A stretch of DNA of 43,017 nucleotides from Enterobacteria phage phiJLA23: the sequence record NC_047740.1. One strand, 5' to 3'. The notes under the pieces are model-generated. The model worked only from the letters and a program-made list of their open reading frames with translations, did no database searches and had not been told where the DNA came from. The position numbers and the translations under genes are program-made. Shown here one piece after another: positions 15,004 to 42,049 of the stretch; position 1 is the stretch's first letter, and every line of letters starts with the position of its first letter.

Positions 15004-15823
15004 TTATGCATCAAGCCTTACAACTTCTATACACAGGTCTTGATTGTCGCTCACAACATAACCGACTGTAAATAGATTTATTGTTACTCTCCACGCCGTT
15101 CCTGTTGTGGTTTCATAAAAGCTAAAAACATATGGCCTTATTCTTTGAAATTCACCAATGCCAGTAACCAATGCTGTTCCAGTTACGGAAGATGAAGATA
15201 TTGCTGTCCTTACTGTTGTATTGAAGTAGTTATCTGTATTATTGAAGCCCTCAATATTACCTCTTATGTTCCTGGCAGTGCTTCCCTCATCAATCCAGGC
15301 TCTAATGCTAAAAGCANTTGGNGAATCAAGCCTTATACCACCGAGNNCNCNCCNNTCNTCGCCTTGAGGACCTNGCGGCCCCGCAGGGCCTGCCGGACCA
15401 GTGTCGACCTTGNGGCCNTGCNGCACCAGCTNCGCCTGCGGGACCTGCTGGACCNTGCGGACCAACCGGACCTTGTGGACCTGCTTCACCTGAACCCCCT
15501 CCTTCATCACTTGCAAAATCACCTTTAGCCAGAGCTGAAATATAAGCGCCATCCTCGAAGTGAGCATTGCCAAACCTTTTCCAGCCCTGCGCTAGATATC
15601 GGTTAACCCTGTTAACTAGCCCCTGAATTGTGGTGTCGGATGTAACCATGAAGTCTTCAACGTTGTTTGTTGTTCCTTTCGCCATCTTCATGCCAAAGAG
15701 GGTGCCGCTTAGCATCTGCACATCACCATATGGCTGAAAGCCTGATGACATCATCACTTTTACGTTCCTGGCTAAGATTTCAGGTGAATTCCCTACTGCC
15801 ATAGCAATTTCTGTGTAAGCCAT
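15004..15823 (-). CDS. Structural protein with collagen-like Gly-X-Y repeats (ORF disrupted by N-run 15300-15500)
   Basis: RBS aggaga 5 nt before ATG 15823; translation contains GEAGPQGPVGPxGPAGPAG; two overlapping ORFs (15326-15823, 15004-15573) rejoin if the N-rich tract is corrected. Confidence 0.5.
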
Positions 15824-19494: not shown

Positions 19495-19700
19495 TAATTT
19501 CTCCAATAAAAACGCCCCTGGTAAGGGGCAGTTTATCATGATTACTTAACTCCAGCTAGCCTCATTAACCTAGNTCTTGGGTCGNNCNNNNNNNNNANNC
19601 CGTCTGNNTNNNCTTTNNANNTTTTNTANTCNATAAAAAAGCCCCTGAGTAAGGGGCAGTTTATCATGATTACTTAACTCCAGCTAGCCTCATTAACCTA
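19495..19700. repeat. Tandem duplicated segment (~19507-19575 and ~19631-19700) around an N-run: probable assembly artifact containing the terminase terminator
   Basis: Two near-identical copies of the large terminase 3' end plus terminator hairpin, separated by Ns 19575-19635. Confidence 0.7.
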
Positions 19701-21238
19701 GCTCTTGGGTCGTCACTCAAGTTCAATTCACAGTTTATTGCCATCGTTGTTGTATCTACAATGTCATCATGGGGGTGTGAATCGTCCGCAGTGAACGCCG
19801 AGAACTCAGTTAGCAGAGATGTAAGCCATGGCGCTGAGTCTGGCAGAACTACGTTACCAGCCTTAATCTGTGGTAATGCGCTCATCACCCTGGTTAACTT
19901 ATCTGTATCGGGAACGAAAGGCTCAATAGGAGTCCGCATCGTTCGACCTGCTGACTGGATAAGCCCTATGCCAGATGCTTTCTTCTCGATAATAACCTTA
20001 CGTAAGATACCATCTGTTTTACTAGCTGCTCGGTGCTTACTCTCAAAGTTCAGAAGAGTTTGCTCAAGCTCTGGAGCCTCCCATTTACCCCTAACCATAT
20101 CCAGAAGATAAATCTTGTTATCCTTTCTACCCCAAAGCTGGAACACAGAATAATCGCTGTAACTCTTCGTAGTCATGGCAGTATCAGCTGTAATGAAGCG
20201 GTAGTCATACTTGACTGGCGGCCTGTTGTTCTCGTCAAGCCTCACGAACCAATCTACGTTAATCAGGTTTCCACCTAAGGCTACTGGAGATTGTTGGTAC
20301 TGGCTTAGGAACGTGTACGGATCTGAGTCCCACATTGCCATCAAGTCATGCGCAGATTCCTTCTGCGGGAAGTAGCTGTAATACTTAACACCATCTCGCT
20401 CGACGTACTCGGATGAAAGCACGTCCTTCTCGAACTGCTCACGAATCCAGTCAGGAAGTTCATTCACATATTCTTCAGTGACCAGCGCCGGTATCTTCAA
20501 TACATCAAAGTCGATACCCATACCACCAGAAGTCATGAACCACGTCGAATCCTGCGTATGAAGCCTTTGCTGGATGGACAAAATCGGCGTAGCTTTACCT
20601 TTAACGCTACTCGCCCTACGTGAGCGAATGGTATTTTTAAGTAAAACGTGGACAGCTTCTCGCCTTACCTTGCTGAGCATATCGTCTGGCTTGTCTGGGT
20701 CATCAAGCATCAAGCAACCGCTATAGGTTTCAGTAATATAACCGCCACGAGCGCCGGTAATCTGACCGCCAATTGCCTTAGATATCGCTTCGAACCTAAC
20801 CTTTCCACTCTCGTCAAGAACCTGAATCTCGTCATCCTTGCACGTGCCGAACTTACAGGGCCATAGTTCCTGAAACTCAGCTGACTTTATAAGGTCGCGA
20901 ACACGCTTAGAGTTGCGCTTCACCAGACTGTCAGAGAATGAGAGGCTCAGATTTCGCACCTTCTTTAGCTTAAGCATTGAGTATACAGGGAAGTGTATTG
21001 AAGTAATCTCGGTCTTCCCGGCCCCGGGAGCCACGTTAATGATGGTATCCCTACGCTCGCCACTAATAACCTCGTCAATTATTCGGCAAAGGTACTTGTG
21101 ATGCCAGTTAGGGATGTATCGCTCTCCCTGGCTTAGCTGAAACCACACGCGAAGGAATGCCTCGAAGCTGTGAGTGGACAGCACTTTAACTGCCAGCTTT
21201 TCGGCTGGCGTCATTTCTTCCCAAACCAATGTCTTCAT
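19670..21238 (-). CDS. Terminase large subunit
   Basis: 522 aa; Walker A NVAPGAGKT near N-terminus; start overlaps small terminase stop (ATGA). Confidence 0.9.
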   Translation of the reverse strand: MKTLVWEEMTPAEKLAVKVLSTHSFEAFLRVWFQLSQGERYIPNWHHKYLCRIIDEVISGERRDTIINVAPGAGKTEITSIHFPVYSMLKLKKVRNLSLSFSDSLVKRNSKRVRDLIKSAEFQELWPCKFGTCKDDEIQVLDESGKVRFEAISKAIGGQITGARGGYITETYSGCLMLDDPDKPDDMLSKVRREAVHVLLKNTIRSRRASSVKGKATPILSIQQRLHTQDSTWFMTSGGMGIDFDVLKIPALVTEEYVNELPDWIREQFEKDVLSSEYVERDGVKYYSYFPQKESAHDLMAMWDSDPYTFLSQYQQSPVALGGNLINVDWFVRLDENNRPPVKYDYRFITADTAMTTKSYSDYSVFQLWGRKDNKIYLLDMVRGKWEAPELEQTLLNFESKHRAASKTDGILRKVIIEKKASGIGLIQSAGRTMRTPIEPFVPDTDKLTRVMSALPQIKAGNVVLPDSAPWLTSLLTEFSAFTADDSHPHDDIVDTTTMAINCELNLSDDPRARLMRLAGVK

Positions 21239-23466: not shown

Positions 23467-23700
23467 ACTGAAATAAATATCACGNTNCTCACCACGCTNC
23501 TTTCGAAGTTCATAAGCCTTATTAAGCGACTCAATAGCTTCATCAAGGTCTGTTAANANGTCCTTGTGCCCACGCANNCCNCNNANGCGNGNNAACNCAN
23601 CNCGCTCAACAATAAGTACCATACCCTCATCAGCAAGGCATTCGGTGTCGAATCCGTGATTTTCGTGAAAGTAAACTGCCTCATCAACTTCAATTATGCN
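23467..23700 (-). CDS. Probable gene obscured by N-run (hypothetical protein)
   Basis: Long open frame on minus strand through 23485-23700; stop codon lies inside the palindrome copy; start unresolved. Confidence 0.25.
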
Positions 23701-24974: not shown

Positions 24975-25237
24975 TATTTAGTCTCCTTAATCATTTCCTG
25001 ATATGCGTTAATCATAGCTACCGCACCCTTCAGTTCATCTCCACTCATTCCTGCTACGCTGGGGAAAGCTTAAGTAGCCTAGCTTTAAACTCGCTTACCG
25101 CTTTCTCCCTTATTGGACTGTTTGTCTTAGCTCGNGGTTNCNTNNNNACNACGCNGAANTNCATNCAGAAGANNATTTTCTGTGCTGCGATGGACTTGGC
25201 TGCGTCGAATGTTTACCATTTATTTGAGGATTGAGAT

Positions 25238-28345: not shown

Positions 28346-28681
28346 ATGTTCATCCTTGATGTGTTCAAGTTCTGCGAGAGCTACGAAAAGTTTAACAGGC
28401 AGCACCTGGCGGTATTCATTTACCGCCACAAAGAATGTGAAAGAATGGCTAAGGCAGCTGGAGTTAATGCGCGTTACTTTGCATCATCTGCGTCAAAGGA
28501 GTTTCTGGCAAGATGCATGACTGAAGGTTACATCGATGGAGTTAATGGCAGTTACTGGAGCAAAGGAAGCACGAAGCGACCATTCGGTTTTAGCTTTAGG
28601 TGCCTCGGAGGTGAGAGTGATAAGTACACCAATGAGATGATGACCATAAAAGAAATGACAGACGACCAACTGTTCGCGTAA
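28346..28681 (+). CDS. Hypothetical protein (111 aa)
   Basis: ORF 5 nt after ATPase stop; ends at bidirectional terminator. Confidence 0.5.
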   Translation: MFILDVFKFCESYEKFNRQHLAVFIYRHKECERMAKAAGVNARYFASSASKEFLARCMTEGYIDGVNGSYWSKGSTKRPFGFSFRCLGGESDKYTNEMMTIKEMTDDQLFA

Positions 28682-28685
28682 AATA

Positions 28686-28710
28686 AAGGAGCCATTAGGC
28701 TCCTTTTTTG
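28686..28710. terminator. Bidirectional terminator (hairpin ggagccattaggctcc, T6)
   Basis: Between convergent genes ending at 28681 and 28695. Confidence 0.7.
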
Positions 28711-29099
28711 TTTCCTGCGAATCTTAAAGCGAAGTAAGTTAGCAAACCTGAAACTAATCCAGCCAGAATACCCCAGACTAAAGAGTCAACCCCAGAGTTT
28801 TCAGTGCTATGAATTTCAATCTTTTCAGCTGTTATTGTGTTAGCTGAGAGACCCGTAGCAGCAGTCTTTTTATGGCTTGATGAATCTACATCTCTGTTAG
28901 TTGAGTTGCGCATATCGCTCTCTGTTGAGCTAGATTTGTCTGTCTGGCTGGATAATCCAACGCCAGTTTTCTGGTTTGACTCGCCAACCTGCGCCGTTGC
29001 CTCGACGCCATCCTTTGCTGGTAAGAAATCAGAAATGGCTGACATAGCAGAGCAGCCAGTCAGTGATGCAATTACCAGAACTACAATTCCGAGACGCAT
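28695..29099 (-). CDS. Unimolecular spanin (u-spanin, T1 gp11-type)
   Basis: N-terminal lipoprotein signal with lipobox LTGC plus C-terminal transmembrane helix LVWGILAGLVSGLLTYFAL in one polypeptide; directly after endolysin. Confidence 0.75.
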   Translation of the reverse strand: MRLGIVVLVIASLTGCSAMSAISDFLPAKDGVEATAQVGESNQKTGVGLSSQTDKSSSTESDMRNSTNRDVDSSSHKKTAATGLSANTITAEKIEIHSTENSGVDSLVWGILAGLVSGLLTYFALRFAGNKKGA

Positions 29100-29564
29100 A
29101 GCTTAATCTCCGCGTTACGCCTGTTAACCAGGCCTTTGCTAACAACTTTNTTACCACCAACGCTGATTTTATTCCATAGATAACGCCTCGCATCCTCCCC
29201 TGATATCACCACGATTTATGCGCCTTATAGCAGTTGAATTGCGCATTGCACTGGTTCCAACATTGAATGAAAAACTGTACAGCGCCGCCCTGGTGCTAAC
29301 TGGAACATTAACCTTCAGCGCTTTATCTACAGCAGCTCTATGAATTGAAAGGTGCTTCATCAGGAGTGCATCGCATTCTCTCTGGGTGTACTTTTTACCG
29401 AGAATAACATCAGGACCAGTGATTCCCTGGCAAACAGTCCACACTCCAGCAATATCTCTGTAAGGCCTGTACTTAACTCCTTCATGCTCATTCAGGAACG
29501 GAATAGCTAATGCCATGGCTCCAGCCACAGCCGAACCAATGACCTTATTCTTGAAGCTCATCAT
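29081..29564 (-). CDS. SAR endolysin (T4-lysozyme-like), frameshifted in this assembly
   Basis: N-terminal signal-anchor-release segment; catalytic spacing E..D(+9)..T(+6); annotated frame stops at 29169 but +1 frame continues to 29081 with lysozyme-like C-terminus (GLVNRRNAEIKL). Confidence 0.7.
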
Positions 29565-29776
29565 TTACTCCTGATTCTCATTGCCTCTCGAATGTCACCA
29601 TCCTCAAGTGCTTTATGGAGCGCCTTACTGTCACGCCATCGCAGCCATGCGCCAAAAATACCAAAGCATACGGCGATAACTAAGCCGATAATGCCGATGA
29701 TTGTGTTGTCAGATAAACCGCCGCCCATAGCTACTCCGCTACCGGATAAGGCGGCTGCGTCATAGAAATGCTTCAT
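29561..29776 (-). CDS. Holin (putative)
   Basis: 71 aa with hydrophobic helix and charged C-terminus; ATGA-coupled upstream of endolysin; RBS aagagg. Confidence 0.6.
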   Translation of the reverse strand: MKHFYDAAALSGSGVAMGGGLSDNTIIGIIGLVIAVCFGIFGAWLRWRDSKALHKALEDGDIREAMRIRSK

Positions 29777-29806
29777 GTTGCGGCCTCTTTAAGTTGATTT
29801 GATTAA

Positions 29807-29866
29807 ATAATACCAGATATTAAACTTTGACATAAACGAAAAAAGGCAGCCTTAAAGGCCGCCTGT
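29807..29866 (-). promoter_or_regulatory. Terminator hairpin (29845-29865, T6) followed by TATTAT -10-like box (29807-29812) upstream of lysis cassette
   Basis: aggcggcc-ttta-aggctgcc then tttttt; -10-like hexamer; RBS; holin ATG. Confidence 0.45.
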
Positions 29867-29884: not shown

Positions 29885-30064
29885 TATAAGTTAGTCTGCG
29901 ATAATGAATTCCACCAATTCTCCATCAATCGGGGTGAAGATCCAAGTCATGTCATCTCCATAAATCTTGTAATTACCATCCCCCTGGTACTCACCACTGT
30001 AAGGGTTGTTTACAGTGAAAGGCAGTGATTTTGATTTGTTGCTAACGCAGAATAATTTAGTCAT
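29885..30064 (-). CDS. Hypothetical small protein (59 aa)
   Basis: ORF filling the gap between 30077 and the terminator; below ORF-track cut-off. Confidence 0.35.
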
Positions 30065-30076
30065 TTTGATAATCTC

Positions 30077-30265
30077 TTAACGGTTTACGCAAATAAGTGT
30101 GTTTACATTAATTGGGAAGCAGTTACCGCCCATGGTCTTAATCATTACGAACGTACAGCTAGGGTAATACTCAAGGCTTGTGGCCTTAACTTTTTGCCGT
30201 TGGCAATTTGAGAACAAAACCTCATCACCCACCTTTACCATATCAGCTTTAATTGTTTGCAACAT
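30077..30265 (-). CDS. Hypothetical protein (62 aa)
   Basis: ORF coupled to upstream gene. Confidence 0.5.
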   Translation of the reverse strand: MLQTIKADMVKVGDEVLFSNCQRQKVKATSLEYYPSCTFVMIKTMGGNCFPINVNTLICVNR

Positions 30266-30451: not shown

Positions 30452-30520
30452 TTTGTATCCTCTCGTTTTGTTTTGATGGAGTAAATATACCCCCTCTTTT
30501 NATTTGTNTTTTANTTNGTG
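30452..30520 (-). promoter_or_regulatory. Composite early promoter (TATATTTAC, leader CATCAAAACAAAAC; palindrome degraded by Ns)
   Basis: Module order conserved; upstream half-site region contains Ns. Confidence 0.35.
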
Positions 30521-30843
30521 CTAGTTCNTGTNTNCNTTNTNNNTNNNNTTTCTAGCGTATTCATCATCTCCTCAAGCTTCTCTGCATCAATAGAGGACTT
30601 AACCCATTGCAACTTCACATTGCCATCATTATCAACAAGGCTAGATACACCTTTAACCATGTAGCCCTGAGGAATTAGGTTACTCACATCGCGACCGTGA
30701 CCATCCCCAGCCTTAGCCAACTTGCTGCGACGCAGCTCTACGTTACGAATATTCATACCGTACTTCTCTGCGATTGCCTTGTTAGTCATACCGTTAGCCA
30801 GTTCTTGCTTTAACTCTTCGTTGGTGATTTTAGCTATAGACAT
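30511..30843 (-). CDS. Putative HTH DNA-binding protein (3' end uncertain, runs into N-run)
   Basis: N-terminal helix-turn-helix-like segment TNKAIAEKYGMNIRNVELRRSKL; ORF passes through Ns 30490-30550. Confidence 0.45.
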   Translation of the reverse strand: MSIAKITNEELKQELANGMTNKAIAEKYGMNIRNVELRRSKLAKAGDGHGRDVSNLIPQGYMVKGVSSLVDNDGNVKLQWVKSSIDAEKLEEMMNTLEXXXXXXTXTSXX

Positions 30844-31686: not shown

Positions 31687-32297
31687 ACTCATAAACAAGA
31701 AAACTTACATGCTTACCTTTCGCATCATTACACCCGTAGTACCCATCAAATTCATTATGTAACTTCCATGCAAATCCGTCATCGCTAACTATTTCAACCT
31801 GGTCATTAATCGGGTCAAGTTTGAATTCATACTCATTGAGCAGGGTGAATGAGCCGTTCGTCATTACGCAAGTCGCAGTAATCATGAAAAAATCCTCCGG
31901 GCAATCTTTCTTCATTTCTTCGATATCAGCAATCATTCGGTCNNNCCATGTTTCGATATCAGTGTTCAGATAACCCNCTTCTNAACTATTTAAACCNGTT
32001 CATTAATCGGGTCAAGTTTGAATTCATACTCATTGAGCAGGGTGAATGAGCCGTTCGTCATTACGCAAGTCGCAGTAATCATGAAAAATCCTCCGGGCAA
32101 TCTTTCTTCATTTCTTCGATATCAGCAATCATTCGGTCGCGCCATGTTTCGATATCAGTGTTCAGATAATCCTCTTCGAAACTATAATCAAGACACCAAG
32201 CTAAATCCCAAACATCATTTTTATATCCAGCTTTACTCAACTCCTGCGCCACCATTGCCTGAAAGAGTTCCCATTGCTTATCAAAGGTTAATTTCAT
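31685..32297 (-). CDS. Hypothetical acidic protein (about 155 aa in the true genome; interrupted by an artifactual ~198-bp tandem duplication)
   Basis: ORFs 32079-32297 and 31685-31936 share ...RMIADIEEMKKDCPEDF; copies differ by homopolymer length and Ns at the junction. Confidence 0.45.
31786..32181. repeat. Tandem ~198-bp duplication with N-rich junction (probable assembly artifact)
   Basis: Unit 31786-31983 repeats at 31984-32181; Ns at 31943-31997; A6 versus A5 run between copies. Confidence 0.7.
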
Positions 32298-39251: not shown

Positions 39252-39680
39252 TTAAAACGGAATATCATCTTCATCACTAAATCGGCTTTGTTGCTGCGGC
39301 TGCTGTCTCTGTTGCTGTTGAGCTTGTTGTCGCTGCTGCTGCTGTTCTGATTCACCTCCTCGCTGACTAAACATCAATCGAGGATTCTGCAACTCAAGCG
39401 TAATATATGTCTTGCCATTATGTTCGCGCTCATTAACCGCTAATGAATCGCCGCTCACAGAGATAACTTTTCCTTCCTGAAATGCTTCGTCATACCAGCT
39501 AATTTGCGCCTCGCTAGCAAAGAAGGTAGCTCGATAATTACTATACTTACGCTCTCCATCTCGTGTTTTATAAGATTCGCTCATTTCGATAGCGTACATC
39601 TTCCAGTTACCCTTGGCGTTCTGACCATCTTTACTGAACAGCGTCTTACCAACCATATCTAAGAATTTGTCCCAATTCAT
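39252..39680 (-). CDS. Single-stranded DNA-binding protein (SSB)
   Basis: OB-fold-like N-terminus, Gln-rich linker, canonical acidic C-terminal tail ending DEDDIPF. Confidence 0.8.
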   Translation of the reverse strand: MNWDKFLDMVGKTLFSKDGQNAKGNWKMYAIEMSESYKTRDGERKYSNYRATFFASEAQISWYDEAFQEGKVISVSGDSLAVNEREHNGKTYITLELQNPRLMFSQRGGESEQQQQRQQAQQQQRQQPQQQSRFSDEDDIPF

Positions 39681-41665: not shown

Positions 41666-42049
41666 TTATTTCAACTTAAGAATCTCGCTATTCTTATCAA
41701 CTAGATTAGCAATAAGCTCATCTTTAGCCTTTAACTTTTCGCAGGCAACCTCAAGCTGAGCCTGATATTTGTAAACCACCTCTTGAGAGTCATGGTAACG
41801 ATTTGACTCGAACTTAACATCGAAGTATTGCTCATCAAGTTCCGCAGGATTTCCACACTTATCCATGCTCTTAAACATGAACTTCTCAATCGCGTAATAG
41901 TTATCCTCAGCTCTGTGCTGCGCGGCTCTATTTAGCATCTCCCTTATNNCCCTTANTACGTGGTCATGTCGCTTTCCCGTGATCTCGGCAATTTCAAGGC
42001 TACTCATGGTNACGTTTTCATCAATATTAATCAGATTCATATCTATCAT
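41666..42049 (-). CDS. Rha-family phage regulatory protein
   Basis: Motif MSSLEIAEITGKRHDHVxRxIREML typical of Rha N-terminal domain; start taken at ATG 42049 (ORF track starts 42079 on GTG); Ns at 41945-42010. Confidence 0.65.
   Translation of the reverse strand: MIDMNLINIDENXTMSSLEIAEITGKRHDHVXRXIREMLNRAAQHRAEDNYYAIEKFMFKSMDKCGNPAELDEQYFDVKFESNRYHDSQEVVYKYQAQLEVACEKLKAKDELIANLVDKNSEILKLK

Follow-up and report, generated by a model that had tools for sequence, protein, structure and literature searches.

The open reading frame at 28695-29099 on the minus strand of the genome of Enterobacteria phage phiJLA23 very probably encodes the unimolecular spanin (u-spanin) of this Rogunavirus phage, a member of the T1 gp11 family. 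Spanins are phage proteins that break the bacterial outer membrane, which is the last step of lysis. The window considered here is the whole stretch of 43,017 nucleotides of record NC_047740.1, and all positions refer to it. The predicted function rests on homology to T1 gp11, with 36% identity over 117 aa (BLASTP, E=2e-15). The first-pass annotation, made from the DNA letters, had proposed both the 134-aa frame and its assignment to the T1 gp11 type; the same coordinates, strand and ATG were recovered, and the assignment agrees with the two membrane signals, the gp11 homology and the synteny described below. This exact protein had been entered in a 2018 catalogue as a u-spanin of the T1 family, so the reading is correct and ordinary, and not new.

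The spanin gene and its membrane signals

The exact-sequence look-up found the protein to be 100% identical to AGC35372.1 (phiJLA23 JLA_42) and to YP_009615882.1 (gp47 of Escherichia phage C119), and PHROG 1804, named 'Rz-like spanin', matched it over its full length with E=1e-45. No Pfam or NCBIfam model matched the spanin above threshold, the best being Dsc3_C (E=0.015) and TraV (E=0.007); neither library has a curated u-spanin model. As for the homologues, the word-indexed protein search gave close relatives only, and the distant ones came from a tblastn search of phage sequences; the latter returned 913 phage records, the majority from Drexlerviridae and from KP34-like podophages of Klebsiella and Escherichia, and u-spanin or unimolecular spanin is a frequent label among them. 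The features of the gene, all on the minus strand, are as follows.

28695-29099, minus: predicted u-spanin gene, ATG start, 134 aa; phiJLA23 JLA_42, equal to C119 gp47
29108-29111, minus: Shine-Dalgarno sequence GGAG, read from the sequence, 8 nt 5' of the spanin ATG and within the 3' end of the endolysin gene
29052-29099, minus: lipoprotein signal peptide, residues 1-16 (regular expression and hydropathy)
29052-29063, minus: lipobox LTGC, residues 13-16, fitting the consensus [LVI][ASTVI][GAS]C
28788-29051, minus: periplasmic domain, residues 17-104 (composition and hydropathy)
28725-28781, minus: core of the C-terminal transmembrane (TM) helix, residues 107-125 (Kyte-Doolittle 19-mer mean 1.96)
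28698-28724, minus: basic cytoplasmic tail RFAGNKKGA, directly after the TM helix

The lipoprotein and TM signals were judged by regular expression, Kyte-Doolittle hydropathy and conservation. Regarding the N-terminus, a basic M-R is followed by the hydrophobic stretch LGIVVLVIAS and then by the LTGC motif, and the 10-residue Kyte-Doolittle mean ahead of Cys16 is 2.98. In an alignment of 11 sequences with 27-87% identity, which included the T1, TLS, KP36 and Minorna proteins, G15, C16 and S17 were invariant. The residue at position +2 after Cys16 is thus Ser17, and not Asp; by the sorting rule of the Lol pathway, a lipoprotein without Asp at +2 goes to the outer membrane. An N-terminal lipoprotein signal with the lipobox LTGC, as claimed in the first-pass annotation, is borne out by the regular expression, by the hydropathy and by these three invariant residues.

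At the other end of the protein, the 19-residue window with the highest Kyte-Doolittle mean covers residues 107-125, LVWGILAGLVSGLLTYFAL, and the TM helix spans about residues 105-126. AlphaFold2 modelled one helix at 2-25 and another at 102-133, with pLDDT values of 75-91 for the second; together with the hydropathy mean of the core, this second helix confirms the C-terminal TM helix proposed earlier. The hydrophobic C-terminal segment and the basic tail occur in all the homologues examined, down to 27-36% identity (T1, TLS, KP36 and Minorna). Both of the signals on which the initial reading had been made to depend were therefore found by regular expression and hydropathy; in addition, among the 103 ATG-started frames of at least 60 aa present in the six frames of the whole window, the spanin was the only one to combine a lipobox with a C-terminal hydrophobic 19-mer.

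The TM domain (TMD) contains a glycine zipper, GxxxGxxxG (G-ILA-G-LVS-G), formed by G110-x3-G114-x3-G118 at positions 28743-28772 of the window; of 18 close relatives within Rogunavirus, 16 keep the motif, and it is missing from the T1, TLS, KP36 and Minorna u-spanins. According to the literature, the TMD of u-spanins is no more than an anchor. A zipper that drove TMD-TMD oligomerisation, and so aided the clustering of spanins or fusion, would contradict this anchor-only view, if true; such a role for the Rogunavirus motif is, however, unlikely, and its restriction to one clade is a mildly unexpected trait that may well mean nothing.

As for the periplasmic domain, it is rich in Ser and Thr (27 of 88 residues), the hydropathy between the two hydrophobic ends of the protein reaches a maximum of 0.39, and no Cys occurs anywhere in the spanin after Cys16. 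The motifs TAQVG and A-x-x-I-x-AEKIEI are conserved in this part of the alignment. AlphaFold2, run on an alignment of 20 sequences, gave a mean pLDDT of 56, with confident helices only at the two membrane segments; in the periplasmic part it placed a short helix at 32-35 and no strands, and pLDDT was below 50 over residues 25-58 and 72-88. Because the periplasmic values were mostly below 50, no fold was assigned to this domain. The published prediction for the phiJLA23 u-spanin gives a periplasmic domain of 90 residues with 28.9% strand and 6.7% helix, and the signature of the u-spanin family is a short periplasmic helix followed by at least four beta-strand elements (PMC6139136).

The lysis cassette and the endolysin reading frame

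The spanin gene is the last one of a lysis cassette, the other features of which are the following.

29844-29864, minus: terminator-like hairpin 5' of the holin gene, 9-bp stem with 6 GC pairs and a T-run (terminator scan)
29561-29776, minus: holin gene, 71 aa, T1 gp13 family (PHROG 2877 holin, E=2.7e-36)
29081-29564, minus: predicted SAR endolysin gene, GH24/T4-lysozyme type (Pfam Phage_lysozyme, E=5e-29)
28685-28706: GC-rich hairpin over the spanin stop, 9-bp stem and 4-nt loop, flanked by A-runs and T-runs (terminator scan)

On the minus strand the order is therefore hairpin, holin, endolysin, spanin and the hairpin over the spanin stop; beyond the spanin there is a convergent YdbL-like gene, and then a DUF3987 helicase. 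The holin stop overlaps the endolysin start as ATGA, and the spanin start overlaps the endolysin gene, once the frame of the latter is restored, by 19 nt, an overlap that couples the translation of the two genes. The holin-endolysin-spanin order is the same in T1, TLS, KP36 and Rogue1, and the spanin closes the lysis operon in all the Drexlerviridae examined. Over the cassette region, phiJLA23 has 99.8% identity to Escherichia phage C119 (Drexlerviridae, Rogunavirus) and 99.5% to phiKP26. A compact minus-strand module of holin, SAR endolysin and spanin had been announced in the first-pass annotation; its genes, their order and their strand stand, with the correction that the endolysin frame is broken in this record.

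Regarding its boundaries, the hairpin at 29844-29864 marks the 5' end of the lysis module. The hairpin at 28685-28706 folds at -19.3 kcal/mol (z=-5.6) and is probably a bidirectional intrinsic terminator, common to the spanin gene and the convergent YdbL-like gene; at the equivalent site, the KP36 record annotates a rho-independent terminator on both strands, and the Rogue1 record two overlapping terminators. A possible extended -10 element, TGgTATTAT, was seen at 29807-29815 on the minus strand, about 30 nt 5' of the holin ATG (29776), and it would make the lysis cassette a transcription unit of its own; a sigma-70 scan that needs a -35 hexamer made no call at this site. Two small conserved genes lie 5' of the cassette on the minus strand, at the same position in C119, phiKP26 and Rogue1: DUF7244/PHROG 4788 (57 aa, 29891-30064), just next to it, and PHROG 10052 (62 aa, 30077-30265).

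The holin shares 37% identity with that of T1 (E=2.5e-16), and the identical C119 holin gene matches PF27028, Phage_T1_holin. It has one clear TMD, at about residues 24-46, with Kyte-Doolittle values up to 2.8; the Gly/Ala/Ser segment ahead of it is weakly hydrophobic, with a value of about 0.7. Pinholins of the phage 21 S68 type are small proteins with two TMDs, of which TMD1 is releasable and weakly hydrophobic, and they form small depolarising channels. With the exception of two outliers, the cassettes of the T1 family encode a pinholin and a SAR endolysin (PMC6139136); for the T1 and TLS homologues, the pinholin status is a literature assertion from prediction only.

As for the endolysin, the intact C119 protein matches 3HDE, the SAR endolysin of phage 21, from residue 10 onwards (E=4e-38), and also RrrD (E about 1e-38). 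It has the catalytic spacing E-x8-D-x5-T, in a motif that begins at residue 28, and its N-terminal segment, KVIGSAVAGAMALAIPFL, consists of Gly, Ala and Ser to 44%. The match to 3HDE, the catalytic motif and the Gly/Ala/Ser-rich N-terminus support the prediction that the upstream gene encodes a SAR endolysin, and they agree with the earlier proposal of such an enzyme.

In the phiJLA23 record, compared with C119 and phiKP26, the endolysin gene lacks a TG between 29177 and 29176, so that TATGTGG becomes TATGG. This 2-bp deletion breaks the frame at codon 130: a frame of 131 aa remains at 29169-29564, and the rest of the gene, from 29081 to about 29176, is read in a different frame, where the last 30 aa, which are conserved, stay encoded without further change. 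The endolysin of C119 and phiKP26 is intact, with 161 aa, and the truncated product of 131 aa, deposited as AGC35373.1, occurs in the phiJLA23 record only. The frameshift is probably a sequencing error, because the record is of draft quality: it contains 230 N in 138 runs, and the ambiguous base at 29150 is 26 nt from the deletion. A programmed frameshift was rejected as the leading reading, considering the draft quality of the record and the intact frame in the two nearest relatives.

A reading in which the deletion is real, the lysis module defective and the spanin without a working cassette to complete is very unlikely. The missing TG and the shortened product, confined to this one record, are what such a reading would build on; the draft state of the sequence and the ambiguous base so near to the deletion speak against it, together with about 30 gap openings relative to C119, blocks missing or duplicated at N-rich joins, and the unchanged C-terminus in the downstream frame. 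Moreover, phiJLA23 was propagated as a lytic phage, and hence would need an endolysin.

At the level of the whole genome, the phiJLA23 record aligns collinearly with C119 once circular permutation and reverse orientation are allowed for. Its N-rich joins are at about 7144, 13920, 15341-15396, 19574-19632, 23577-23602, 25140-25174, 30501-30548, 31943-31997, 39639-39654 and 41928-41956. Among the C119 blocks that it lacks are the genes of three HNH endonucleases (gp05, gp27 and gp41), most of gp40 (exonuclease), a part of gp03 (tail fibre), and both gp16 and gp53. Genuine presence or absence of homing endonucleases may account for some of the blocks; others look like assembly gaps, for instance at the truncated exonuclease frame 30511-30843, which runs into Ns. 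Two short apparent tandem duplications, both around N-rich stretches, are most likely mis-assemblies: approximately 200 bp of C119 (29444-29645) align twice at about 31788-32185 of the window, and approximately 80 bp (44880-44959) align twice at about 19505-19712.

Other functions considered and the proposed mechanism

Several records call the protein, or close homologues of it, 'Rz1 protein' or 'putative Rz1 protein', and its outer-membrane lipoprotein signal is what an Rz1-type o-spanin would have, with the i-spanin partner encoded elsewhere. That the phiJLA23 protein is such an o-spanin is nevertheless hardly conceivable: it has its own C-terminal TMD and basic tail, which are absent from o-spanins; no other frame with a lipobox exists in the cassette or beside it; no frame with an N-terminal TMD and a helical periplasmic domain adjoins it, the next gene being convergent; and the homologous T1 gp11 complements Rz/Rz1 alone. 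In the three minus-strand frames of 28600-29800, no second lipobox frame was detected, and no embedded or overlapped o-spanin was found in all three minus-strand frames. Since the cassette has no second lipobox, it does not encode an Rz/Rz1 pair; the earlier exclusion of a two-component system thus holds, the single lipobox being joined in the same protein by a C-terminal TMD. A two-component spanin of the lambda type consists of an i-spanin with an N-terminal TMD and a coiled-coil periplasmic domain, and of an o-spanin lipoprotein whose gene is separate, embedded or overlapped; here the hydrophobic stretch at the N-terminus runs into a lipobox, and no periplasmic helices are predicted.

A phage lipoprotein of another role, for instance in superinfection exclusion like T5 Llp or Cor, that merely adjoins the lysis genes deserves next to no credence: small phage lipoproteins with exclusion functions do exist, a 'putative lipoprotein' is annotated at another site of the C119 genome, and the sub-threshold NCBIfam match to the TraV lipoprotein might be taken in this sense (17 bits, against a cut-off of 44.75), but this match is far below its cut-off and lies mostly over the signal peptide and a low-complexity stretch, the gene overlaps that of the endolysin and closes the lysis operon in the Drexlerviridae examined, and the protein is homologous to the experimentally characterised T1 gp11.

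For the u-spanin, the sequence features and the work on T1 gp11 suggest the following mechanism. By virtue of the N-terminal signal with its LTGC motif, the prolipoprotein would be exported through Sec, lipidated on Cys16 and cut by signal peptidase II, and Cys16 would be the lipidated first residue of the mature spanin. From established lipoprotein biogenesis, the Ser at +2 would lead to Lol-dependent transfer of this end to the outer membrane; the C-terminal helix would stay in the inner membrane, with the basic tail inside the cell (N-out/C-in). With the lipidated N-terminus in the outer membrane and the C-terminal helix in the inner one, a single polypeptide with about 90 periplasmic residues would bridge both membranes through the peptidoglycan. 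By analogy with T1 gp11, intact murein would hold the spanin inactive until the holin collapses the membrane potential, whereby the SAR endolysin would be released and degrade the wall. The freed spanins would then oligomerise and collapse, pulling the inner and outer membranes together and probably fusing them; with the outer membrane destroyed, the virions would be released. Even for T1, fusion of the two membranes is a model, and reviews describe the mechanism as still lacking.

Relation to T1 gp11, its family and lambda Rz/Rz1

T1 gp11 is the prototype unimolecular spanin (Summer et al. 2007; Kongari et al. 2018, PMC6139136). The phiJLA23 protein has nearly the same length (134 aa, against 133 aa in T1), and both have a lipobox with Ser at +2 (LTGC in phiJLA23, LSGC in T1), a C-terminal TMD with a basic tail, no periplasmic Cys, and the motifs TAQVG and strand-like A-x-x-(I/V)-x-AE. 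The gene context is alike too: in T1 the spanin is the last in a holin/SAR-endolysin/spanin cassette (genes 13-12-11), followed by the convergent YdbL-like gene and the DUF3987 helicase, and the identities between the two phages are 37% for the holin, 51% for the endolysin and 55% for the YdbL-like protein. As for the differences, the central periplasmic region of the phiJLA23 spanin is divergent and more Ser/Thr-rich, its TMD is Gly-rich (GxxxGxxxG) whereas that of T1 is rich in Leu, Phe and Val, and the spanin/endolysin overlap is 19 nt instead of the 1 nt of T1. The lipobox and the C-terminal TM features are also conserved in TLS RzlA, KP36 gp68 and the Minorna u-spanin.

In the survey of Kongari et al. 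[quoted passage not shown] The T1 family has 28 members, among them phiJLA23, phiKP26, Rogue1, JK06, AHP42, AHS24, AKS96 and e4-1c, and the supplementary table has the entry 'phiJLA23 USP 134'; a periplasmic Cys occurred in none of the 58 u-spanins (PMC6139136). From the same study, T1 gene 11 complements the lysis defect of lambda Rz/Rz1, and disruption of the outer membrane was shown for T1 gp11 only (PMC6139136). The spanin described here is 100% identical to the listed phiJLA23 member and has 85-91% identity to proteins of the Rogue1, AHP42 and e4/1c type. Within Rogunavirus, C119 gp47 is identical and phiKP26 gp66 is identical but for one ambiguous residue, and the other members (e.g. Rogue1 gp64 and JK06 JK_57) have 85-96% identity; all of them are in the T1 family of Kongari et al. 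or are close kin of listed members, with no difference of substance.

Like lambda Rz/Rz1, the phiJLA23 spanin comes last in its lysis cassette, is predicted to bridge the inner and outer membranes, and would be restrained by the peptidoglycan. Unlike them, it is one polypeptide and not two, with no i-spanin carrying an N-terminal TMD and no embedded lipoprotein frame; it also has no predicted coiled-coil helices and no periplasmic Cys for disulfide-linked dimers. Between u-spanins and lambda Rz/Rz1 there is no sequence homology (PMC6139136).

The labels given to the Rogunavirus spanin in the databases are 'hypothetical protein' (phiJLA23), 'Rz1 protein' (UniRef), 'putative spanin' and 'Rz-like spanin' (C119); the Rz1 and Rz-like names wrongly imply homology to the two-component spanin of lambda. 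In conclusion, the correct label for the phiJLA23 protein is 'u-spanin, T1 gp11 family', a change that matters little beyond annotation. The protein adds no new handle on the mechanism of u-spanins; as a divergent member of the family, it is usable for comparative mutagenesis.
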